Positions 15,452 through 42,941 of a stretch of DNA of 64,000 nucleotides are shown here, piece by piece. Position numbers and translations under genes: made by a program. The stretch lies in contig OY760504.1 of assembly GCA_963663705.1 (NCBI GenBank), forward strand, positions 1,538,788 through 1,602,787. The letters run 5' to 3'. Below the pieces are notes generated by a model. The model was not told the origin of the DNA. It searched no databases and saw only the letters and a program-made list of their open reading frames with translations. Source of the stretch: Armatimonadota bacterium (GTDB taxonomy: Bacteria > Armatimonadota > UBA5829 > DTJY01). Numbering within the stretch: the stretch's first letter is position 1; every line of letters starts with the position of its first letter.

Positions 15452-16147
15452 CTACAATCCACTCCACATAACGCCGTTGCCGTTTGCATCAATATCGATC
15501 AATGGGGAAACCATCTTCATCCATTTGACATGGCCGTCTACAAAGGCCACATTCGCTCCATCACTGTGCCGGGTAGCCATGCTTTCTTTGTATGTTCTAT
15601 TAGCATCCAATGCGCCCCAGCCTGGTGCGCAGAAATATGGTTCCCACGCAACAGCAGTCTTATCGATAAAACAGCCGGTACTCGAAGCGTCACGGATCTG
15701 GCTCAACGTTCGAGGCACACCATCACCGGCAGGCTGCCCATACAATAATTGATGTGCCAGATACAATCCGTTATAGCCATAGCTAGCGTATGTGTACCCG
15801 CCAGCCTCTATCTGAGGCCCCGAGGAAGCAGTTGGATCCGAGGGGCACATGTTAATTTTCACATTTCTCAGATATGGATCCAGCAGCGGCTTATGGCTGG
15901 CAAAATCTATGATGTAATCCATGCGACCTCCTGTAACGGCGACCAGGAGTGGGCACGTCTCGTCATAATCCTGCGTGTACATTTGCCAGGCAACCATTAT
16001 CTGTTTCAGATTACTCTGGCAACTTGCCTGCCTTGCCTTATCTCTGGCTTTCGCGAACACCGGGAAGAGTATAGCCGCAAGAATAGCTATTATAGCTATA
16101 ACTACTAGTAACTCGATCAGAGTAAACCCTCTTCTGCTTTTCATCAT
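15452..16147 (-). CDS. Prepilin-type N-terminal cleavage / DUF1559-like protein with H-X9-DG C-terminus
   Basis: [31 protein letters not shown]; [17 protein letters not shown]; GGAGG RBS. Confidence 0.92.
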
Positions 16148-16232
16148 AACCCTCCACTGCAATTAATTATAAGTTACAGACACCGCATTCACGGCTAACA
16201 TACCTTGAGCAAAATGACATCTACAGGTTTTT

Positions 16233-18005
16233 CTAGAACCACTCGATGGATGCTTCTGCACAATGCACAGCCGGTCTATCTGCGTAGAGATCTTTAAGGC
16301 TGCGTTCGTAAAGTGGATACACCTCGTACAAATGGGTACTTGGAGTCAACTCTTCTCTGGACGGTCCACCACCCTTCTTGCACACTTTTAGCGCAGAATC
16401 TCCCATGAACTGAATATCGAAAACCTCCGGAGCAAATCCCCCGTGCAATACAGTATACTCTTCTTTTCGCTCCGCACAGGGCAAGCTAACCAAAACATCA
16501 TCGCCGGAATGTATGTCGCTTATGACAAGCCTTCCATCGGCGCGCTCGATGCCGGCTGGCGATCCATTCACAACTGCTGTAACGGCTGAGAACGATGCCC
16601 ACTCAGGCAATCGCACTTTCAGGTTACACGCGCGATCTGAATGAACACTCACCTGGATAACCGAGCCATCATCGGATTTGGAAACTTTCACTTCCGCATC
16701 CGGAATATGTCGGTCAACAAGCAAATTAACCATCAGATCATTGCCGGAAAACCGCAAAGTATGACTCCATGCCAGATACAGCGCCTTAAGACCGGCCGGG
16801 CCGCAACAGTTTTGAAAGAGCCTGAACTTGCCGACGTAATTCTCTGGCGGCGCATACGACTGAAGCCAGGGCGCACCGAATACAGGTACTATCCCAAGGA
16901 GATGATTAAACGCACTCCATCCTGCAAATCCACCAAGCATGCGAGAAGGCACGTCATCTCCGATAGAGAACTCGTCTCTGGGCCTTGACTGACCGGATTC
17001 GGCCCAGTGCGTACCCGTAAGCTGGCTTTCTATCAAGTGGTTTCTGACTATCTTTTCGGCATCCCCCCACTTACTCTCATCGCCATCCAGCGCCAGCAGC
17101 AGGGTAAGTTCAAGATAATCCATGATTCCGCATGTTTCACTGCGAAACACGGGATGATCCGGTAAGTTCAATACTTCAGGGACAAATCCACAAGGGCCAG
17201 CCAGTTCACGCGCATACTCCCATGCCAGACGGGCGAGGCGCACCCACTCAACATTGCCGGATGCCTTTCCGCAAACGAATACTCCGGCAGCCCCGGAAAG
17301 TTTGGAGTGCACGTGATGTTCGAATCGGCCGTTTTCGTCCAGGATGCGGGCTTTGTCCAGCAGGAATCGGCAAAGATCCACCGCAAGATCAAGGGCAGGT
17401 TGATAACCGGTCAACTCCCATGCCTTTACCAACGGTCGGAGCAACGGGCCCAGGTAGTAGCCGGAATCCGGCGCATTGTCGAAATCGATCGGTTCTTCCC
17501 ACTCACCATGCTTATATCGGCAACCCGGGATGAACCTGTAGCCATCACGCTCCGTAGATACGCTTATCAACCCGTCTATAATGCCGATAATCGCAGACTT
17601 CACCTGTGCGTCTGGATCGGCCATGTATGCGGAGCACAGCGCATACATCGTCCGTGACTGATCGAACATCTCTGCAACATTGCTCGAATAGGCAGTCAAC
17701 GGCCTGTAGCTAAATCCATCAGAGTCGAAATAGCTGAGCGTAAGCTCTCGAAGTCTGTTCAGATTTGCTGGAGGAACTCCGGTCATATCTCTTATCATGA
17801 GAGCGGCTTCCCAGTACCTGCTGCTCAGGTCACCGAAGTCCGGCCAATCGTGAAACAGCTCAACGGGAGACCCATCGAATACATCAAAATACGGTTGTCC
17901 CGTTACTGGATCGACTGTTCTTTCCAGGTAATTTACGGCAAGCTTTGCTCTCGATTCGAAATCGACAGCGCCCGATGCGGGCATTTTCGGGAGAGATTGA
18001 ATCAC
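16233..18005 (-). CDS. Divergent GH127/GH146-like (alpha/alpha)6 glycoside hydrolase
   Basis: SETCG and QNCCGP motifs equivalent to the Glu/Cys Zn site of GH127; C-terminal 'LKVRLPEWA' beta domain. Confidence 0.65.
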   Translation of the reverse strand: MIQSLPKMPASGAVDFESRAKLAVNYLERTVDPVTGQPYFDVFDGSPVELFHDWPDFGDLSSRYWEAALMIRDMTGVPPANLNRLRELTLSYFDSDGFSYRPLTAYSSNVAEMFDQSRTMYALCSAYMADPDAQVKSAIIGIIDGLISVSTERDGYRFIPGCRYKHGEWEEPIDFDNAPDSGYYLGPLLRPLVKAWELTGYQPALDLAVDLCRFLLDKARILDENGRFEHHVHSKLSGAAGVFVCGKASGNVEWVRLARLAWEYARELAGPCGFVPEVLNLPDHPVFRSETCGIMDYLELTLLLALDGDESKWGDAEKIVRNHLIESQLTGTHWAESGQSRPRDEFSIGDDVPSRMLGGFAGWSAFNHLLGIVPVFGAPWLQSYAPPENYVGKFRLFQNCCGPAGLKALYLAWSHTLRFSGNDLMVNLLVDRHIPDAEVKVSKSDDGSVIQVSVHSDRACNLKVRLPEWASFSAVTAVVNGSPAGIERADGRLVISDIHSGDDVLVSLPCAERKEEYTVLHGGFAPEVFDIQFMGDSALKVCKKGGGPSREELTPSTHLYEVYPLYERSLKDLYADRPAVHCAEASIEWF

Positions 18006-18052: not shown

Positions 18053-19993
18053 CTACTTTACGAACTCTTCACTAGCTGATGTATCTGCGAACATACGCAC
18101 ACTGTTAAGCCCCCATGCGGCACCCCTGGGAAGCCAATCTGCGGTGATATGACCATCCTGGAATGTGTTGCCTGTGATAGATACATTGCTGTTATTCACC
18201 GGCACGTTAATGGTCATGACTCCAGTTTTGGCCGGAGCGAAAATATTACCGGATATAACCGAAGTAATGGTCTTTCCGCTGCTGACCTGCAAGTATTCCC
18301 CTGTCTGGCCACGCACCACATTGTTGCTGAACACAACATTTTGCGGAGACATCGGGGTCTTTTCCTGAACCCTTTTGTCAAGTCTTGCATTGAAGTACTG
18401 GTCGTATGGCTGTTCTCTAAGCACGAAACCCCGGAATGCGCCAATAACAGTATTGCCTGTGATGACTACGCTATCACAATTACCGGCCACTTCGATGCAG
18501 TTTGGCGTAATTCCTGCATCCAACGGCTGGTCGTATATAACGATATTGCCCGTAAGGATTATATTGCGTGTAGGTACGAAGGTGGTAATTCCCCAATCGG
18601 GATGAACAAAAATGCCCACACTCTGCGGTACCTGGCTGAGGTCATCCATTTTTGGTGCATTCCAGTTACGCACGATATTGCCGGTAAGTGTGACGTCGGA
18701 TACATTGAATATATCTATGCCATGGCACCTCGAGCGCTCCACGATATTATTAGCCAAAGTGATGTAATAACTATAGAAACCGACCACTATTCCGGTATCA
18801 AAGGTATCGGATGTCTTGCAGTTAGCTATGCGAATATTCCAGTTGCCATAGCGGCCACCTTCATAATTGCCGTTAATAGTTATGCCGTGCCGTGCGCCCT
18901 GAATGTTACAGGCATCGACAACGACGTTCTTGCAATACAGGATGGCTATGCCCTCGTGCTGGAAGTTTTGTGTGGAACAGTTCTGAACTCGGCAATCAAC
19001 CACACCGTTGAGCTCTATTCCTCTTGTACCCTGCAGATTCTCCCCTGCCTTATAATTGCTAGGATCGTTTACAAGCGATATATTTGAGATATTGATATCA
19101 TGCAATCGCCAAACGCCTTCTGCATCGCTGACACTGATTCCGGTAATCGGGGTTTTCTCCGCAACCTTCAGTATCGTTCCGGCTTCTCCGCGTATGTCGG
19201 TATACGATTTGCGAATCATCAGGGTCCGACTTATCTTGTATATCCCTGATGGCAAGTAAACGAGGCCACCCTTGTCGAGAGACGCCTGTATCGCTGCCGT
19301 TGAATCGTGCTTGCCGGTGGGATCCGCACCCGCCTCTATGACGCCCCCCGAAACAGATGTCGGAACCACGGCGTCAGCGGCCTCATCGGAAACGGCGTCA
19401 AATTTGACGGCGCCGCTGTTCAGATGGACAAAACCAGGATTCGCATCGTCGGCCAGGCGGACTCTGATGTACAGCTTTTTCATGTCGGACGGCACGATAA
19501 AACTCTTGCCTTTTTTGTTAAGAATCATGTTGCCGGATGCGTCTGCCGAGACGTCAAGCTGTGGACACCATGAGCTATCATTGGAAACCCAGAAACCGTT
19601 CGGCCATGGGGTCTGTGTATGGTGGTAAACCGGATCCAGCCCGTATTCTAGGACAACTTTTCCAGCGAATTCCTTATAAATATTGAATGTAGGAACAACC
19701 TTATAAGTCTTTGTATCACCGGCAGCTCTGCTCCACAAAAATATCCAGTTGGCGCCTTTAGCGTTTCCAAACCGCAAACTCCCATTTGCATCCGAACTTC
19801 CATTGACCTGTGAATGCACGGATTTCCAGTCCTTCGGGTTTCCAGCGATATCCGTGCCAAGGACATCGCCAGTGGCAGAACTTATCCCTGAAGTGAAAAA
19901 AAACTCGGGGCCTGCATGGCAAGTAAGACTACCACACAGAGCTAAAACAGCAGTAAACACAAGAGTCATGCCTGTTACCAATTTGATTGACAA
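18053..19993 (-). CDS. Secreted right-handed beta-helix protein (pectate lyase 3 / GH28-like) with an extra N-terminal domain
   Basis: Signal peptide; GADPTGKHDSTAAIQA…VYLPSGIYKIS; repeated N-I-x-I-x-N-N beta-helix turns. Confidence 0.8.
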   Translation of the reverse strand: MSIKLVTGMTLVFTAVLALCGSLTCHAGPEFFFTSGISSATGDVLGTDIAGNPKDWKSVHSQVNGSSDANGSLRFGNAKGANWIFLWSRAAGDTKTYKVVPTFNIYKEFAGKVVLEYGLDPVYHHTQTPWPNGFWVSNDSSWCPQLDVSADASGNMILNKKGKSFIVPSDMKKLYIRVRLADDANPGFVHLNSGAVKFDAVSDEAADAVVPTSVSGGVIEAGADPTGKHDSTAAIQASLDKGGLVYLPSGIYKISRTLMIRKSYTDIRGEAGTILKVAEKTPITGISVSDAEGVWRLHDINISNISLVNDPSNYKAGENLQGTRGIELNGVVDCRVQNCSTQNFQHEGIAILYCKNVVVDACNIQGARHGITINGNYEGGRYGNWNIRIANCKTSDTFDTGIVVGFYSYYITLANNIVERSRCHGIDIFNVSDVTLTGNIVRNWNAPKMDDLSQVPQSVGIFVHPDWGITTFVPTRNIILTGNIVIYDQPLDAGITPNCIEVAGNCDSVVITGNTVIGAFRGFVLREQPYDQYFNARLDKRVQEKTPMSPQNVVFSNNVVRGQTGEYLQVSSGKTITSVISGNIFAPAKTGVMTINVPVNNSNVSITGNTFQDGHITADWLPRGAAWGLNSVRMFADTSASEEFVK

Positions 19994-20077
19994 AGAACTT
20001 CCTCCGTTGCAATTCTATTCATATATCATAAAAGTATGAGTGCGAAAATATGTAGACTGACTTGAAACAAGCAGCAG

Positions 20078-20120
20078 GTGATCATGCGTACATAGAACAT
20101 CAGCATGAACGCATGATCAC
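20078..20120. other. 12-bp perfect stem-loop just downstream of the PEP-CTERM gene
   Basis: gtgatcatgcgt / acgcatgatcac, 19-nt loop, no U-tract. Confidence 0.6.
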
Positions 20121-20137
20121 TCTACTGAAGATAGAAA

Positions 20138-20812
20138 CTACTTTCTGCGTCTAATAAGCGTTACCCCAGTGGATAACAGTCCGGTAACCATTACCGCAAG
20201 GGTGCCCGGTTCCGGTACCGGCTGAGCAGGAGCAGCAGTGAGGTCGCCGCTCTGGATCCAGGTGAAACCGCCACCTGCGTTGTCCAGCATTGCTACACGT
20301 ATAAACACCTGGTTAGCGGTCTCCGGCGCAATAAAGCCAACTCCGGCCGAATTTAGAGTACAGGCTATCCCACCATCTGCAAGTGATGTATCCAGTGTAG
20401 TCCATTTGGTATCATCAGACATCCATAATACGCCATTGCCACCTGTGACAACATCATCGAAGGCGTACTGCAGAGCCACTCTGCCGGCATATTCTTTCCA
20501 GATGCTGAAGCTTGATGTAAGCGTATATGCTGCGGTATCACCGGCGGCTCTTGACCACAGATATGTCCAGTTATCACCTTCTGAAAATCCGAATCTGTAC
20601 TGTGCCGTCTGTCCACCGTTAAATTGAGACAGGACTGACGCCCAATCTGCCGGATTCCCCGTAGACGACGTTCCTAAAACAGCACCACCAGGGGTACTAT
20701 TGATCCCAGGTGCATAGAAGTTATAACCAGCAGTGGCAGCACCGGCCAATCCGAAGCCGAGACAGATGGTTGCAGCAAGAATCGCCATTGATTTTGTTAA
20801 TCCGTATTTCAT
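20138..20812 (-). CDS. PEP-CTERM sorting domain protein
   Basis: Signal peptide; C-terminal PVPEPGTLAVMVTGLLSTGVTLIRRRK; GAGGAGG RBS. Confidence 0.92.
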   Translation of the reverse strand: MKYGLTKSMAILAATICLGFGLAGAATAGYNFYAPGINSTPGGAVLGTSSTGNPADWASVLSQFNGGQTAQYRFGFSEGDNWTYLWSRAAGDTAAYTLTSSFSIWKEYAGRVALQYAFDDVVTGGNGVLWMSDDTKWTTLDTSLADGGIACTLNSAGVGFIAPETANQVFIRVAMLDNAGGGFTWIQSGDLTAAPAQPVPEPGTLAVMVTGLLSTGVTLIRRRK

Positions 20813-21027
20813 GTTATTTCCTCCTCTTCATTTAGAACCTCGTTTATTAAGTGTTTTACACTTTCCTTCCGTAAATGCTTATGTTGAATCTCCCTTCTGC
20901 AGATTCGTGCACAGCTCTGCTGAACGCGGTCAGTCCAAAACGACAAACCTATCCCCTGAATTTCTTTAGAAAGGGCGATAACTTAGCAAACACCGTCCGA
21001 AGATGAATGTGAAGTCACCTGTCACTT

Positions 21028-21176
21028 ATTGAATCACTATTCAGTGTTTTTGTCAACACTTTATCCATAAATCAGCGAATATTGTTCATTCAACCACACT
21101 TCTTATGTGCATCACCGTATATTTCCTCGTGTTTTCGCGAATAGTTGTTGACATACACGGTGTAAAGTTATAGAAT
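21028..21176. promoter_or_regulatory. Divergent sigma70-type promoters
   Basis: Plus: TTGACA 21148-21153, 17 bp, TAGAAT 21171-21176. Minus: TTGACA 21056-21051, 17 bp, TTCAAT (weaker). Confidence 0.55.
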
Positions 21177-21443
21177 AAGTTATCGTATTTGGCGAGTAGC
21201 GTGTTTATTCGACACTGGAAACACATACTCAACATGGACCAGATCACTCTGAAATGGAAATAGCGAGCACAAACGGACAACACATTCAATGTCTCAAATA
21301 CGCAGGATGGGATGAGAACAAGCGAAAGCAGCAGTTCTCCTGACCAGCCTTCTGACCTCCGGAGCATCAACAATCACCGATAGCGGTGGTAGATGGAACT
21401 GTTTTTTAGATTTGGACTGCATCCGGTGACCAAGGAGAGTAAA

Positions 21444-22640
21444 ATGGACAATCATTCAACACATCGAAAGTTAAGCACGAAAACTTCGTCTAGAATAAGC
21501 ACTGCAGATCGTCTTGTACAGCAATGCCCTGAACTAAAACTTAACGGCATGACCAAAAACAAAGCACTTAAGGCTACGCTGGAAGATGCAATATGCAAAG
21601 GGGTGTATAAGCCGGGTGATCTACTCCCCTCGCAGAACCAGATGGCTGTTACATACGGCATCAGCCACAATACCGTCAGGGAAAGCATTGCGGCACTGGT
21701 ACAAGAAGGATTAGTGTACAGAGCACACGGGAAAGGCACATTCGTGTGTAAGCGGGAACAGAAGCAACTCACCCTGGGCCTGGTTATCTCACATTTGGAT
21801 TCGTCCGGGGATATCCAGTACAGTCAAGGATATGATGTCGCTCCGCAGTTACTGCACCATATACAGGAAGAAGCAATTACTCAGAACGCAAGCATAATGC
21901 TGTACATAGACCAGGACAGCATTGATAACGAGAGAACCAACCTCTTAAATCTTCTCGATAGAGAAATAGATGGCATAATAACCTTATACATAGGGGAAGA
22001 CCAGAATTTGGACTGCCTTGAGAAAATAAAGAGTTCCGGCACCCCGCTTGTTCTCATAGATAACTATCCAAACGGGTCGGAAATGAACTGCGTTGAGACG
22101 GATCATTTTGCTGGCGCATACAAGGCAGTTAACTACCTGCTCAACAAGGGTTTTAGCAGAGTCATAAATCTCACTAACGATGGAGCAAACAGTGCCGTCG
22201 AACGGCGCATGGAAGGATACAGGGCGGCGCTGTCGTCGCGCAGACTGCCGGAGAATAATGTGCAGGTCAAACACCTTATCTGCACAACCATGACAGACAT
22301 GGAGGAACCGGCTTACGAGGCTATGAAGAAACTTCTTCAGGATATCGAATTGCCGTTCGCACTATTTGCGGTTAATGCCTTTGCGCTTGTAGGCGCCTGG
22401 CGGGCAATTCAAGAGAGCGGATTGGACCATGACAAGTTTGCACTGGCATGTTTCGACAACCCCTGCACCAGTATTCCTGAAGATATAACATTTATAAAAG
22501 TTATCCAACCGCTGAAAGAAATAGCGCAAACAAGTATAGACATAGTGATTGGAATTCTAAACGGCGACAAAGATACAAAGCACGTGATCCTTCCTCCTGA
22601 AATCATAGTGAGAGAAGGCGGGGAAACCCGCACGTTATGA
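21444..22640 (+). CDS. GntR-HTH + LacI-type sugar-binding regulator (paralog of 11783-12928)
   Basis: PGDLLPSQNQ…SHNTVRE…HGKGTFV, VETDHFAGAY, ACFD; start after AAGGAG. Confidence 0.9.
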   Translation: MDNHSTHRKLSTKTSSRISTADRLVQQCPELKLNGMTKNKALKATLEDAICKGVYKPGDLLPSQNQMAVTYGISHNTVRESIAALVQEGLVYRAHGKGTFVCKREQKQLTLGLVISHLDSSGDIQYSQGYDVAPQLLHHIQEEAITQNASIMLYIDQDSIDNERTNLLNLLDREIDGIITLYIGEDQNLDCLEKIKSSGTPLVLIDNYPNGSEMNCVETDHFAGAYKAVNYLLNKGFSRVINLTNDGANSAVERRMEGYRAALSSRRLPENNVQVKHLICTTMTDMEEPAYEAMKKLLQDIELPFALFAVNAFALVGAWRAIQESGLDHDKFALACFDNPCTSIPEDITFIKVIQPLKEIAQTSIDIVIGILNGDKDTKHVILPPEIIVREGGETRTL

Positions 22641-22903: not shown

Positions 22904-25750
22904 ATGAACAAGCAATACACCATGCACGTAATATCCGGAACTCACTGGGACAGGGAGTGGAGATACTCGGCAGAACAGTCCAAGCTCAGGCTGGTAGATC
23001 TGATGGACTCAGTTCTCGAAATTCTGGAACAAAAGTCTTCTTTCCGATCGTTCTGTATCGATGGCGGCATGGTGGCTGTTGAGGACTATCTGACACTCCG
23101 GCCGGAAAACAATGCAAGGATCAAAGCGCTGGTTGAAAATGGAAAACTCAAGTTGATGAGCTGGTACACGCTCCCGGACATGTTCACAGTTTCGCCGGAA
23201 TCCATAATCAGAAATATCACACTTGGCCGTCAAATGGCTAACAGTTTCGGCGGAGCCATGGCTGCCGGCTACACGTCATGCTCTTATGGACAGACTTCAC
23301 AACTACCTCAGATATACCGCGGGTTTGGAATAGATACAGCGCTGTACTATAGAGGCACAAACCAGTATGAATTGCCCTCACTCTTTTTGTGGAAGGGGAT
23401 GGACGGATCAGAACTGCATACGGTCAGAACATTCGATGACATTACAAGGGCCAACTGGTATTTCAACGTGCATTATCCACTCGTTTTGGGCAAGGACTTT
23501 CTGGATCTTTCATACAAGTTCAACAAAAACGAGCAACCATGCCATCTTTGTGACGGAGAATCTTATGAACGCCCATTTGCCCTGCTGCACGAAGATGGCA
23601 CGTTCAAGAACGATGCGGCATCCCTGAAGAAGGCTCTAGATGCCATAAGGCGCCATGCAGAACCCTTTGCGATAGGAAGGCATATGCTTGCGCTGAATAT
23701 AGAAGACAACGCTCGCCCTTATGAGCCTATGCCCGAAATTATAGACGCACTTAACGCTATCTCCCCGGATATCGATATCGTACAGAGCAGCTTCGATGAG
23801 TACTTCAGCGCCATACTGGGTGACCACGGAAATGACGACCTGTTTGTACACAACGGAGAAGCGCGTTTCCCCGGCGTAGCACCCGGATTCAACGGGCTTT
23901 ACGGTGCCACGCATTCGTCGAGAGTGAAATTGAAACTGATGAACGATAAGGCGGAAACGGCTCTCATTAATTTCGCAGAACCACTCGCTTCCATAGGATC
24001 AAATCTGGGCTTTGAATACCCGGCATCGGCACTGGCACGTGCATGGAGAGTCCTGCTTCAGAACCATGCGCACGACAGTATTTGCGGCGCCGCAATAGAT
24101 CGGGCCCACGAGGATATGATCTACAGATTCTCAACAGCAGAAACGGTCGGGCTTGAAGTCGCTGCGCGAAGTCTTGCCTTCCTGCAATCCAAAATAGATA
24201 CGGCAAGCCATTTTTCAGGTTCCGACTACACAATTACATTTTTCAACACGCTGGCGGTCGAACGCGATGAGATCGTCCAGATAGTCGCCGACATTCCTGA
24301 ATGCACGGACATGGAGCATTTCGACATCGTTGACGAGAACGGCAACATTGTTGAACATAAGATTCAAAGCGTCGACTCAGCCCGCGTTGCAGTCGAAAGG
24401 GAGCTGGACACATCGACATGGTTTTCGTCACGGCGCTGGCGAATTCTAATTCGAGCCCGTGTTCCCGCCATGGGATATACAACATACGCCATCAGACCAA
24501 GAAAGCCAGTGCTCATCGAGCATCCAATTTCCACAGAGCGCAAGCTTATCGCAGGTGCAGGCGGAACCCTGGAAAACGAACATATGAAGGTGCAGATAAA
24601 CAGCAACGGCACATTCAATATATACTCGAAGGACACGGGCCGTGAGTTCCGCAATCTCCACTATTTCACCGATTACGGCCAGACCGGATCTGCCCATTTG
24701 AGCGTCACTCCCCGGCGAAACCCGGTGGTGACAAGCCTTGGAGGCAGCGCCGACATTATAATGGAACAATCATCCACACTGAGAGGAGAATACCGCATCG
24801 ACCTCTGCATGCGTATTCCGGCTGCAGCCACTCAGGATAACGGCGACAGACTAAGAGAGATGAAAGATCTTCCAATATCTACACGCCTCATCCTGGACAA
24901 AGGATCGAAGGTGCTCAAAATCAAGACCCGTCTTTCAAATAGTTCAAGAGATCACAAACTGCAGATTAACTTTCCGACGTGCGTGGACACGAACTTCGCC
25001 GTTGCAGAGAGCGCTTTTGCCATCGAAAAACGGGACTTCCGGTGGCGGGAAACGGGCGACAATCTGGAGGAGTGCTACACATTTCAGCCCATGATGAATT
25101 TCGTAGACATAAACGATGGCCAAATCGGCCTGTCATTTCTTTCAAAAGGACTTAGAGAATACGAAATAACCGATGATCCCGATAGAAATCTTGCAATTAC
25201 CCTGTTGCGCACCCATCGTGATTACATGACGGCAAACAGGGAAATGAATCCCGATGAACTCGATCGCTATACCGGTATGCACTCATTCGGCGATTTCAGT
25301 TACGACTATGCGCTCTACCCGCATGCCGGTGATCACGTTGATGCCGACACTCTGCATACAGCCTATGCACATAAGATCGGCATCAGAGCAGTTCAGGGCA
25401 TACCTCACCCGGGCGATCTCCCATGCAGTGCAAGTTTTTTCACCGTGAAGCCGGCAGACAAAATAATGGTATCTGCACTGAAGCAGTCGGAAGATAGAAG
25501 TGGCACAATCCTCCGATTATGGAACATGAGCGGCGAGAAACTGAAGGCATCAGTGAAAACTTTGCTACCGCTAGAATCAGCTACAAGAGTTCGCATGGAT
25601 GAAACCATAATAGAGCCCTTGCCATTCGAAGGTGGAATATTCAGTCTGAATCTGGAGCCGCATAAAATCGAAAGCATTCTGTTAACGCCGTATGGGCAGA
25701 GCGATGAAGTCGAATCAAAATATGGGATGGATGGGAGAAAGCTCAATTGA
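22904..25750 (+). CDS. GH38 alpha-mannosidase (second paralog)
   Basis: HVISGTHWDREWRY, SWYTLPD, QNHAHDSICGAAID, AITLLR. Confidence 0.9.
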   Translation: MNKQYTMHVISGTHWDREWRYSAEQSKLRLVDLMDSVLEILEQKSSFRSFCIDGGMVAVEDYLTLRPENNARIKALVENGKLKLMSWYTLPDMFTVSPESIIRNITLGRQMANSFGGAMAAGYTSCSYGQTSQLPQIYRGFGIDTALYYRGTNQYELPSLFLWKGMDGSELHTVRTFDDITRANWYFNVHYPLVLGKDFLDLSYKFNKNEQPCHLCDGESYERPFALLHEDGTFKNDAASLKKALDAIRRHAEPFAIGRHMLALNIEDNARPYEPMPEIIDALNAISPDIDIVQSSFDEYFSAILGDHGNDDLFVHNGEARFPGVAPGFNGLYGATHSSRVKLKLMNDKAETALINFAEPLASIGSNLGFEYPASALARAWRVLLQNHAHDSICGAAIDRAHEDMIYRFSTAETVGLEVAARSLAFLQSKIDTASHFSGSDYTITFFNTLAVERDEIVQIVADIPECTDMEHFDIVDENGNIVEHKIQSVDSARVAVERELDTSTWFSSRRWRILIRARVPAMGYTTYAIRPRKPVLIEHPISTERKLIAGAGGTLENEHMKVQINSNGTFNIYSKDTGREFRNLHYFTDYGQTGSAHLSVTPRRNPVVTSLGGSADIIMEQSSTLRGEYRIDLCMRIPAAATQDNGDRLREMKDLPISTRLILDKGSKVLKIKTRLSNSSRDHKLQINFPTCVDTNFAVAESAFAIEKRDFRWRETGDNLEECYTFQPMMNFVDINDGQIGLSFLSKGLREYEITDDPDRNLAITLLRTHRDYMTANREMNPDELDRYTGMHSFGDFSYDYALYPHAGDHVDADTLHTAYAHKIGIRAVQGIPHPGDLPCSASFFTVKPADKIMVSALKQSEDRSGTILRLWNMSGEKLKASVKTLLPLESATRVRMDETIIEPLPFEGGIFSLNLEPHKIESILLTPYGQSDEVESKYGMDGRKLN

Positions 25751-33428: not shown

Positions 33429-34085
33429 ATGAGAAGAAGAGGGTTTACGCTTATTGAACTGCTAGTTGTAATTGCTATAATTGCAATTTTAGCTGCCATA
33501 CTGTTCCCCGTCTTTGCCAAGGCGCGAGAAAAAGCGCGACAGGCTTCCTGTCAAAGTAACTGCAAACAAATCGGCCTTGCGTTGTCCCTGTACATTCAAG
33601 ACTATGATTCAACATATCCAGCCGGAAGATCAGCTGGCAATTGGAATGGACAATGGATTAAGTTAGGACCTTACGGTCTAAAACTGGGACCTAACGCTCT
33701 CCTGGTTTGCCCCAGTGACTCCCTTGCAGTCACACGTCAATATCCTCAAAATTGCAGTTATGCAGCCAATATGGCTGGAGATGATGCCAAACTCACCTGG
33801 GGTGCGGGATATGGATTGTGGGATTGGTGGACTGGTGCGGCACGAACGGAATCCGATGTCACCATGCCTGCAGAGACGGCATACGCTATGGATGCCAATT
33901 GGGATTACGTATATGTGCTGGACGCAACTACCGGTTGGACAGATCCATCGACACTGGGTCCTGTCTACGGTGCGTTTGGCGTAGCATCCCGGCATAGCGA
34001 CGGTGTGAACGTTGTATTCTGCGATGGTCATGTAAAATGGATAAAAACACCTCTTAAAGCCGAGTTAGGCTTGGCAAAAAGATAA
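33429..34085 (+). CDS. Prepilin-type / DUF1559-like H-X9-DG protein (second paralog)
   Basis: [39 protein letters not shown]; [17 protein letters not shown]. Confidence 0.92.
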
Positions 34086-40602: not shown

Positions 40603-41568
40603 TTAGCGCAAACTACTTCTGCGACGAATTCCATAGCCAGCCATACCTAAAAGTCCCAGGCCAAGTGAAAGAAGCGCGCTCGGCTCCGGAACGGGGGCAT
40701 CGGCAGCACCCCAGGTCACGAAATAACCGGTTGTACCGGATGGATTACTGAAAAAATCCTCCTGTACAGGAGTCATCGATTGAGTATCAAACCGGACTAC
40801 ACCGACTGCGTTATCTGCATACAGTTTGCCATCCGGACCGATAGCAACCCCATAAGTACGAGCGCCTCCCGAGGTGTTTGCAACCCATCCATCTGCCGTG
40901 CCGTCAGTATCATAGCGAGATACCTTGTTGTAATAATTCGACACATAGAGTTTGCCGGCATCATACGCCAGACCGTACAAGTATTCCCCACTTCCCGCAG
41001 CCACAGAAAAGCTGTCTTTCGACCAGTCTGAGGTATTGTAGCGAATGACCTCTGCGTCTGTCGACACATACATCTTACCATTTCCGTCAAAAACGATATC
41101 GTTAGCTGACTGGCCTGACACAATCGTAGTTTTGCTTTGCGTAGCCGTGTCTATTTTGATAATATCGCCAGTTCCATATACGCCAGCGTACAGGCCGCCG
41201 TCCGAGCCAAAGGTCAAAGCACCTACATAGCTTAACCCGGTCATGCTCCAGGAATCATCCACCACACCGGTCGTCATATCCGCTCGATGTATAGCGTTAC
41301 CAGAGTAGAATGTGGAGAAATACATGTAGCCATCTGATGATAGCGCAGTATGGTGGACTGTGCCTGAAACACCATTAACAAACACTGCACCGGCGTTCCC
41401 ATCTGAGGGCGCCGCATTGCCGTCCTGGTCATAGCGGAATATGTCACCCGTCGTGGTCGAAGTTTGGTATATGTACGCAGCCCTGACATTGGCTCCTACC
41501 ATAAATATCATTCCTAGCACGAGAACAGCTATCAGCATTAGGCTGACCTTGCATTTTCTATGTTGCAT
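40603..41568 (-). CDS. PEP-CTERM protein with NHL/Vgb-like beta-propeller repeats
   Basis: Signal peptide; repeats FGSDGGLY, FDGNGKMY, IGPDGKLY; PVPEPSALLSLGLGLLGMAGYGIRRR. Confidence 0.9.
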   Translation of the reverse strand: MQHRKCKVSLMLIAVLVLGMIFMVGANVRAAYIYQTSTTTGDIFRYDQDGNAAPSDGNAGAVFVNGVSGTVHHTALSSDGYMYFSTFYSGNAIHRADMTTGVVDDSWSMTGLSYVGALTFGSDGGLYAGVYGTGDIIKIDTATQSKTTIVSGQSANDIVFDGNGKMYVSTDAEVIRYNTSDWSKDSFSVAAGSGEYLYGLAYDAGKLYVSNYYNKVSRYDTDGTADGWVANTSGGARTYGVAIGPDGKLYADNAVGVVRFDTQSMTPVQEDFFSNPSGTTGYFVTWGAADAPVPEPSALLSLGLGLLGMAGYGIRRRSSLR

Positions 41569-41822
41569 TGCTCTTTCTCCCTTCAACTAATCACGCATTG
41601 TGCTGTTGTTTTGGTGTTATCAAACAACAAATACCACCGGTACTATGGAAACCGCCATAATGGCCGACTCCCATCAGCCAATTGTCTCTATGCCGCTGAC
41701 CCCTCCTTTGTTCGATTTGGATATAAAACATTTGTTTGAGGGCCGTAACAAGCTCGCCGATTGTGCAGCGACTAACAGCCAGGATTCCAGTCGATTTTCA
41801 GCTGCATACAATGCCATTGCCT

Positions 41823-42317: not shown

Positions 42318-42941
42318 CTAATATCTAATAGCATATAGGTAGCCAACCAGCACGATCCCCAGATCGGCAAGGAAGTGCGAAGAGGTGACGAGCAGTGTTC
42401 CATTGCGATGCCTCGCAGAGTGCTTCCAAATCCAGGATGCGAATACAAGCAGCACGAATGCAAATGGGAGCCATTGCCAACGCATGAAGAGCCCCAATAC
42501 CAGCATATGATAGCCTGCAAACAGAAAATCACTCCTTGCAGGGCGCTGGGCAGGGGTTTCCAGATATCGCCGCCAGAATAGCTCCTCGAATATGGGGTTG
42601 ATTGCACAGTAGTATATTCCAAAGGTGAGCCAGGAAGTAAGCCCCATTTGATTGAGTCTGGCTCCGAAGTCCGGTGAAATGCCAAAAATCGGCCACAATA
42701 CGTACAGCACCACACCGGTAAATACTCCTATCAGAGCGTTAAGCATAAGCATAATCTTCCAATTGCTCTTTGTGCGACTTTTCCTATTCCGCCAATCACG
42801 GTCGCACCAAAGTAATACTCCAACCGCAAGATGGTATGATACAGCAGCGATCCAGATATTATGTATCAGGTAGATGCCGATAAGAACCGCCAGATATGGA
42901 ATTAATGGCGCAAAGTATTTGACTGCTGATGTGTTTTTCAC
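42318..42941 (-). CDS. CPBP (CAAX/Abi) intramembrane metalloprotease
   Basis: EELFWR, FAGYH, SSHFLAD motifs in a multi-TM protein. Confidence 0.85.
   Translation of the reverse strand: MKNTSAVKYFAPLIPYLAVLIGIYLIHNIWIAAVSYHLAVGVLLWCDRDWRNRKSRTKSNWKIMLMLNALIGVFTGVVLYVLWPIFGISPDFGARLNQMGLTSWLTFGIYYCAINPIFEELFWRRYLETPAQRPARSDFLFAGYHMLVLGLFMRWQWLPFAFVLLVFASWIWKHSARHRNGTLLVTSSHFLADLGIVLVGYLYAIRY

Follow-up and report, generated by a model that had tools for sequence, protein, structure and literature searches.

A 64-kb window (the whole stretch of DNA that was analysed, 64,000 nt of contig OY760504.1 from an Armatimonadota bacterium) contains two adjacent minus-strand genes, here called A and B, whose products share a domain of about 170 residues. 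Gene A encodes a PEP-CTERM protein and gene B encodes a secreted beta-helix protein distantly related to glycoside hydrolase family 87 (GH87). The shared stretch is predicted to be an independently folding beta-jelly-roll module belonging to an apparently uncatalogued sequence family. We favour, at about even chances, the reading that it is a new module of the carbohydrate-binding module (CBM) type with predicted glycan binding, the PEP-CTERM copy being a surface glycan-capture protein and the enzyme copy an accessory module. Fold class, modular architectures, catabolic genomic contexts and the pattern of conservation all agree with it.

A domain shared by proteins A and B

The two genes and their parts are as follows.

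20138..20812, minus strand: gene A, open reading frame (ORF) for a 224-aa PEP-CTERM protein with a signal peptide, one predicted jelly-roll domain and a sorting signal
20732..20812, minus strand: signal peptide of A, residues 1-27 (...GLAGAATA/GY), read off the translation, with a putative cleavage site
20222..20731, minus strand: predicted jelly-roll domain of A, residues 28-197 (BLASTP against B and AlphaFold2 model)
20141..20221, minus strand: PEP-CTERM sorting signal of A, composed of PVPEPG, a transmembrane helix and RRRK (TIGR02595)
18053..19993, minus strand: gene B, ORF for a secreted 646-aa protein with an N-terminal jelly roll and a right-handed beta-helix
19379..19912, minus strand: predicted jelly-roll domain of B, residues 28-205 (BLASTP against A; groups with the N-domain of the orthologue P0003 in the tree)
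18056..19339, minus strand: putative beta-helix catalytic region of B, residues 219-646, a distant GH87 relative (Foldseek, profile search and hhalign)
19595..19627, minus strand: loop Y-H-H-T-Q-T-P-W-P-N-G of the B domain, kept only in enzyme-fused copies (column comparison of fused and free copies)

The first-pass annotation of this DNA had proposed that the mature region of A and the N-terminus of B are the same domain. This was borne out by BLASTP, which aligned A residues 32-189 with B residues 32-194 at 74/166 identities (45%) and E = 4e-38. All of the motif pairs that had been quoted in support were found (GNPADWASVLSQFNG with GNPKDWKSVHSQVNG, NWTYLWSRAAGDT with NWIFLWSRAAGDT, KEYAGRVALQY with KEFAGKVVLEY, and FIRV with YIRV), and the interval that had been given, 19390-20730, agrees with the domain-coding stretches 19379-19912 and 20222-20731. 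No third copy of the domain was found in the window by tblastn with either domain, the next match having E > 0.1. In a maximum-likelihood tree the A domain was sister to all ten other close-clade domains with a support of 86/86, while B paired with its orthologue P0003. This placement indicates that A is an old lineage or paralogue and no fresh copy of the B N-terminus; the proposal that A is a recent duplicate of the B domain was rejected on the same tree.

The same annotation described the module as occurring once anchored and once fused to an enzyme, and family searches agreed with both halves of this description. Protein A ends in PVPEPG-TLAVMVTGLLSTGVTLI-RRRK, which contains all three parts of the sorting signal, namely the PEP motif, a hydrophobic helix and a basic cluster. 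TIGR02595 passes on protein A with 22.4 bits (cut-off 16), and PF07589 of Pfam, at 18.9 bits, is narrowly below its cut-off of 20.7. An exosortase would be expected to keep protein A, which ends in this signal, attached to the cell surface. Protein B starts with a signal peptide, after which come the domain (residues 28-205), a short linker modelled with low confidence and the beta-helix, which is visible in the AlphaFold2 model (pLDDT 76.4) and is matched by PF12708, PF13229 and NosD beta-helix models of Pfam at residues 219-443. A Shine-Dalgarno sequence AGGAGG lies 7 nt 5′ of the ATG start of gene A, and GGAGG precedes the TTG start of gene B.

The domain had been said to match no recognised family, and this holds for Pfam, NCBIfam and the PDB sequences. 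When 16 aligned members were searched against Pfam, no common family was found; CBM_56 matched one member below threshold (E = 0.047, 14.4 bits against a cut-off of 27), and none of the CAZy CBM families, as represented in Pfam, includes the domain. In the NCBIfam search of A and B nothing passed except the sorting signal TIGR02595. The PDB sequence search gave no match with a two-sequence profile and a best E of 0.13 with a 16-sequence profile. A word-based protein search with protein A alone recovered only protein A itself.

The AlphaFold2 model of the domain, built from the 16-sequence alignment, has a pLDDT of 84.2 and a pTM of 0.83 and is an all-beta jelly roll with 11 beta-strands. Foldseek with this model against the PDB returned loose matches only, with E of about 2e-4 and a query TM of 0.29-0.48 over the top 50. 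Among the neighbours were CBM6 with bound neoagarohexaose (2cdo and 2cdp) and the mannan-binding CBM27 (1oh4 and 1of3), together with the MAM domain of meprin, domain III of Cry toxin and the ephrin-receptor ligand-binding domain. The library of viral structures gave generic jelly rolls of tail fibres and capsids only, which were equally loose. The matches to CBM6 and CBM27 are weak (TM 0.34-0.57), and jelly rolls that are not CBMs score equally well. As judged from the model, the fold class is that of the galactose-binding-domain-like jelly roll, which is compatible with sugar binding, and the domain has no close structural relative. The galactose-binding-domain-like jelly roll is the commonest CBM fold. 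The predicted jelly roll is in this sense typical of CBMs, with CBM6 and CBM27 as loose neighbours.

Like the present domain, CBM6 and CBM27 are all-beta sandwiches of similar size which are appended to glycan-degrading enzymes, and they are among its best Foldseek neighbours. They differ from it in that the TM values given above are low, the identity is only 9-12% and no Pfam CBM model matches the domain.

The beta-helix of B and its relationship to GH87

Foldseek with the full-length B model gave the catalytic units of GH87 alpha-1,3-glucanases (7c7d, 5zru and 6k0q) as the best PDB matches, with E from 1.8e-13 (7c7d) to 1e-10 over 640-700 aligned columns. A profile of B orthologues matched 7c7d in hmmsearch (E = 2.8e-10). 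Five GH87-like genes from actinobacterial plasmids were used for comparison by hhalign, and the beta-helix matched these sequences with a probability of 97.9% and E = 3.9e-13 over B residues 206-448. B carries, by these matches, a GH87-homologous right-handed beta-helix. The N-domain family showed no detectable homology to the five GH87 N-domains in the same kind of comparison (hhalign probability 1%, E = 0.05, 31 columns), and the candidate identity of the two N-domains was rejected at the sequence level.

The ADG and GDD motifs in the hhalign alignment, which we take to be the carriers of the GH87 Asp triad, were aligned with RHG and FDT, both invariant in the B family, and D399 is the only Asp of B at these positions; the alignment has about 25% identity here, and an error of register is possible. 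Only one of the three aligned positions presumed to be catalytic is therefore Asp in B. The invariant residues of the B beta-helix family are R368-H369-G370, D399-T400, E419, H424-G425-x-D427-I-F-N and H464-x-D466-W467. They are unlike the GH87 catalytic triad, which in Agl-KA consists of Asp1067, Asp1090 and Asp1091 (PMC6814745), and this hints at an active site of a different kind and perhaps at a new GH or polysaccharide lyase family. The closest named relative of B comes from an uncultured Lentisphaerae metagenome-assembled genome (MAG) and is 51% identical. As far as sequence comparison goes, B belongs to a new family of beta-helix proteins that is related to GH87; its N-terminal jelly roll is analogous to that of GH87, but homology between the two is not demonstrable.

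The layout of B, a jelly roll of about 180 aa followed by the helix, is the layout of the GH87 catalytic unit, in which the N-domain has the same position directly before the right-handed beta-helix, the same size (about 180 aa) and the same fold class. The B domain may therefore belong to the catalytic unit and not be a loosely appended CBM. The two N-domains differ in their motifs, that of GH87 having a CBM6/35-like EAE...SGG and the present domain having NWTFLWTR..GDT..Y. To our knowledge, the GH87 N-domain does not occur as a free or PEP-CTERM-anchored protein.

Comparison of enzyme-fused and free copies of the domain, column by column, revealed a single difference. One loop, Y-x-H-T-Q...W-P at B residues 123-131, is kept strictly in the enzyme-fused copies only; protein A has 6-7 residues deleted at this position, and the model of protein B is of low confidence at residues 124-138, around the loop. 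All other motifs are common to both kinds, including GNPxDW, HSQ, NWTFLWTR..GD..Y, W103, W110 and R145. From this distribution the loop would serve the enzyme, at an interface or at the cleft, while the rest of the domain would have a function of its own. The loop is reminiscent of one in GH87, whose N-domain packs onto the helix with a buried interface and sends one loop near the catalytic Asp residues and the cleft (PMC6814745).

These observations bear on a structural alternative to the favoured reading, in which the module is a beta-sandwich and no lectin for a food polymer. In B it would be a subdomain that buttresses the helix, as in GH87 and GH49, and the PEP-CTERM copies would be matrix or envelope proteins linked to the cell's own exopolysaccharide (EPS), like the Zoogloea floc protein PepA; the presence in catabolic loci would then be secondary. 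The GH87-type architecture, the homology of the helix and the buried interface of GH87 (PMC6814745) all speak for such a role, but the motifs beyond the fused-only loop are kept equally in free and fused copies, which argues for a function independent of the helix. We consider this alternative unlikely, also for reasons which appear from the members and their loci.

Members of the family and their genomic context

Relatives were collected by an exhaustive HMMER profile scan of 1.84 billion representative proteins (E <= 1e-3). This gave 14 clusters, of which 11, protein A included, were taken as real, and the domain family is thus very rare and small. Three long repeat proteins, P0014, P0015 and P0018, were treated as spurious because their matches are broken up into many short stretches, P0015 and P0018 being judged from their sequences and P0014 from its 17 short matched stretches in the match table alone.

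In the HMMER scan, P0003, P0004 and P0006 were orthologues of B with domain and beta-helix, and other searches added P0005 and a paralogue, P0019; other fusions, for which the first-pass annotation had suggested a search, thus exist (P0003-P0006 and P0019). P0009 is what remains of such a fusion in truncated form, and P0007 is an orthologue of the B beta-helix without the N-domain, on a contig too short to reveal a partner gene. P0011, P0012 and P0013 are free secreted single-domain proteins of 204-207 aa. A distant clade contains tandem repeats, with two copies in P0016 and three in P0017, and the PEP-CTERM single-domain protein P0020. Searching the short proteins with a profile yielded 28 further matches; 15 sequences were read, and all 15 belong to the distant clade, have the layout signal peptide, domain and PEP-CTERM (VPEPS...RRR), and are annotated 'hypothetical'. 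Since free, anchored, tandem and enzyme-fused forms all exist, the domain behaves as an independent, mobile module.

The enzyme-fused form was found in Lentisphaerae-like metagenome contigs and in Microbacterium. The P0006 cluster contains WP_170198010.1 of Microbacterium saperdae, which is annotated as a NosD domain-containing protein only. An 11-sequence profile of the domain, searched against genome contigs, found one Lentisphaerae MAG.

Two members have unusual features. The three-repeat protein P0017 scores 43.5 bits (cut-off 27) on the NCBIfam 'phage tail tube protein' NF047353, where no single stretch passes, and the match is probably a summed artefact of the repeats. P0010 (L011:268-2385, Lentisphaerae MAG CAITYL010000223.1) has a GntR helix-turn-helix (HTH) of about 80 aa in frame with the jelly roll and beta-helix and has no signal peptide, whereas its close relative P0003 has a normal one. 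It looks like the product of a deletion that joined the enzyme gene to the regulator gene upstream of it, or like a misassembly.

The free secreted copies P0011-P0013, which have neither anchor nor enzyme, do not agree with the structural alternative. Traits of the PEP-CTERM members speak for it. PEP-CTERM proteins are classically tied to EPS production, and the distant-clade members have sub-threshold matches, partly spanning the domain, to two PEP-CTERM families, floc_PepA (38.5 bits against 80) and FxDxF (35-41 bits, cut-off 50). Protein A itself has a weak match to the EDSAP-1 PEP-CTERM family (NF041538 of NCBIfam) at residues 63-223. The NCBIfam passengers FxDxF (NF038126), floc_PepA (NF033554) and EDSAP-1 (NF041538) resemble protein A in having a signal peptide, a beta-rich passenger of 150-250 aa and a PEP-CTERM signal, and the weak partial similarity extends into the last strands of the domain. 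They differ in that all scores are under the curated cut-offs and only the generic TIGR02595 passes. We know of no enzyme fusions in these three passenger families.

The genes and elements around A and B are listed below.

20850..20862, no strand: palindrome AGTGT-TTT-ACACT, candidate operator, about 40 nt upstream of the A start
21043..21060, no strand: second AGTGT...ACACT palindrome, candidate operator, in the spacer that separates A from the divergent regulator gene
20072..20127, minus strand: RNA hairpin directly 3′ of the A stop, in the A-B spacer (16-nt arms, 94% complementary)
21393..22640, plus strand: regulator with GntR HTH and periplasmic-binding-protein (PBP) fold, divergent from A (Pfam)
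22904..25750, plus strand: GH38 alpha-mannosidase, next after the regulator (Pfam)
16233..18005, minus strand: GH127-like protein directly downstream of B (weak sub-threshold GH127 matches)
15452..16162, minus strand: DUF1559/N-methyl pseudopilin-like protein, two genes past B (PF07596 and PF07963)
40603..41586, minus strand: second PEP-CTERM ORF, 327 aa (...APVPEPS...RRRSSLR; PF07589 at 25.6 bits, above cut-off)

On the minus strand the order is A, B, GH127-like, DUF1559 pseudopilin-like, HAD and GH130. On the divergent plus strand the GntR-HTH/PBP regulator is followed by GH38 and a sugar-binding protein, and a second pair of regulator and GH38 lies further on. Another DUF1559/N-methyl pseudopilin-like gene is present at 33429-34085 on the plus strand. 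The second PEP-CTERM ORF is indirect evidence that the host uses the PEP-CTERM signal. This ORF has weak beta-propeller-like matches (Reg_prop and Vgb_lyase); near it are genes for 1120-aa and 502-aa proteins without clear Pfam domains and an Rce1-like CAAX protease gene (42318-42941).

The pattern AGTGT-N(2-8)-ACACT occurs at two sites in the window, both in the A/regulator spacer, where 0.21 would be expected by chance. Gene A shows no sign of decay: its branch length in the tree (0.58) is similar to that of other members, its Shine-Dalgarno sequence is strong, and the only two such palindromes of the window are in its promoter region. The hairpin downstream of A has a minimum free energy of -30.9 kcal/mol (z = -5.9 against shuffles). 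It was not called by the terminator scan and has no clear T-run after it; it could be a partial terminator or attenuator of read-through into B, or a stabiliser of the upstream mRNA. From this arrangement A is probably the first and most abundantly expressed product of a sugar-regulated operon. A look for expression evidence turned up only metagenome contigs identical to the window.

An orthologue of the regulator (47% identity) adjoins the B orthologues in the related loci L001-L006, which also carry a DUF1559 gene, a paralogous domain and beta-helix gene, and a major facilitator superfamily (MFS) transporter or GH38. GH38 is also present in L005, L011 and L015. Of the loci with free copies, L007 (P0012) has a pseudopilin-like gene directly upstream and GH2 and a PF12708 protein in the locus, L008 (P0011) has a pseudopilin-like gene directly upstream and a PEP-CTERM gene also upstream, and L009 (P0013) has upstream a GspH-like gene, two more N-methyl genes and a 900-aa gene, with GH2 and GH28 in the locus. 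The upstream genes of L009 resemble a minor-pseudopilin set. P0039, a distant-clade PEP-CTERM copy, follows a LacI regulator in a GH38 locus. In L014 (3493-6946) three consecutive distant-clade domain genes come after a GntR/PBP regulator gene, encoding P0020 (PEP-CTERM, one domain), P0016 (two domains and an extra C-terminal domain) and a third protein whose start is at the contig end.

Almost all relatives are thus in regulator-controlled glycosidase loci (GH38, GH2, GH28 and GH130). No EPS-synthesis locus was found among the contexts examined, which speaks against matrix or envelope proteins as the structural alternative has them.

The loci also bear on a docking function, for which the first-pass annotation had drawn a parallel to cellulosomes. 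The anchored copy would bind the N-domain of the enzyme, in a homotypic manner, or its beta-helix, and so tether the secreted enzyme. In the window the anchored copy and the enzyme are encoded next to each other, L014 repeats the arrangement with P0020 directly upstream of the two-domain P0016 and the third domain-bearing gene, and the existence of a beta-helix orthologue without the N-domain (P0007) makes complementation in trans conceivable. However, the pairing is not conserved across loci. The B orthologues in L001-L006 and L011 have no anchored partner nearby, P0039 and the free P0011-P0013 have no domain-bearing neighbour (2-10 kb of flank on each side), and only two of about eight loci have an anchored copy beside a further gene for the domain. 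Free copies lack an anchor and so cannot tether anything, tandem duplication alone yields adjacent paralogues, and Pfam scans of the window proteins and the aligned members gave no match to cohesin or dockerin. Cohesin-dockerin pairs are heterotypic, and their scaffold bears repeated cohesins. The likeness to cellulosomes is limited to the general idea of tethering, with an anchored non-catalytic protein and an enzyme encoded side by side; here the two modules are paralogous, and neither recognisable cohesin or dockerin modules nor a conserved pairing of anchor and enzyme was found. The docking proposal accordingly received little support, and we regard it as quite improbable.

In 6 of 7 independent loci (the window, L001-type, L007, L008, L009 and L014) pseudopilin-like genes lie at most two genes away from a gene for the domain. 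DUF1559 genes occur in extremely large numbers in these phyla, and carbohydrate-active enzyme loci are generally enriched in them; this abundance sets a high chance baseline for such neighbourhoods. The association would agree with a module that acts as the sugar-recognising partner or the cargo of a type II/IV-like fibre made with the DUF1559/N-methyl proteins, and a 'fishing-rod' hypothesis of polysaccharide uptake has been described for Planctomycetes (PMC12078418). Against this, the domain proteins carry ordinary Sec signal peptides and no prepilin leaders, and the Microbacterium cluster entry (NosD domain-containing), judged from its annotation alone, gives no sign of such a system. We hold a fibre accessory to be highly improbable. 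A broader version, in which a surface glycan-capture machine of the PVC (Planctomycetes-Verrucomicrobia-Chlamydiae) type has the jelly roll as its common recognition unit, is likewise a long shot; the anchored, enzyme-fused and free copies of the domain would recognise one and the same polymer, or one another, and would work physically with the DUF1559 pseudopilin fibre.

Predicted function and its meaning

In the favoured reading, that of a CBM-like module, the domain of B would be the N-terminal partner of a secreted beta-helix glycan depolymerase distantly related to GH87 and would probably help to hold or position the polysaccharide through the loop conserved in fused copies only. Protein A would be the module alone between a signal peptide and PEP-CTERM, attached to the surface via exosortase. 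Its gene would head a sugar-regulated operon, with the operator-like palindromes upstream and a stabilising or attenuating hairpin downstream, the genes presumably being co-regulated. A would then act as a non-catalytic surface glycan-capture protein for the polymer degraded by B and the GH38, GH130 and GH127-like enzymes, and this polymer would probably be mannose-containing.

Several observations weigh against this reading. Jelly rolls that are not lectins (MAM, the ephrin-receptor ligand-binding domain, viral capsids and tail fibres) are among the equally weak structural matches, so that the fold is no proof of sugar binding. In the distant clade, L/F/F takes the place of the Trp residues of the NWTFLW strand; since the face on which they sit stays hydrophobic, the Trp residues are probably core residues and not an aromatic binding platform. 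The GH87 N-domain, which the B domain resembles in its placement, is a subdomain in tight packing, for which sugar binding of its own is unproven (PMC6814745).

If A works as the favoured reading has it, proteins of the A type would be to PVC bacteria what surface glycan-binding proteins (SGBPs) are to the polysaccharide utilisation loci (PULs) of Bacteroidota. By analogy from general knowledge, both would be non-catalytic surface-attached CBM-like beta-sandwich proteins (SusE/SusF-like in Bacteroidota, predicted for A) encoded beside enzymes in a regulator-controlled glycan-utilisation locus. Whereas SGBPs are lipoproteins and cooperate with SusC/D transport, the predicted anchor here is of the PEP-CTERM/exosortase type, the neighbours are DUF1559 and ATP-binding cassette or MFS transport genes, and there is no sequence relationship.

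The fold, and the general logic of a binding module common to a surface protein and an enzyme of one locus, are well known. The domain family and the B-type beta-helix family appear to be uncatalogued, and our literature search returned nothing relevant on PEP-CTERM proteins with carbohydrate-binding roles in PVC polysaccharide loci. A small, rare family with a common fold makes the finding a useful annotation lead and no surprise. It also flags an unclassified GH87-related beta-helix enzyme family with different conserved active-site residues in mannoside-type loci, which reaches cultured Microbacterium, where the enzyme form is directly testable. Should the shared-machine version be true, PEP-CTERM sorting and 'fishing-rod' pseudopili would together make up a nutrient-acquisition system alternative to PULs of the SusC/D type. 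If the module binds glycan, it would found a new CBM-like family, and substrate capture in a Lentisphaerae-type (PVC) catabolic locus would be among the first concrete jobs of PEP-CTERM proteins outside biofilm and EPS biology.

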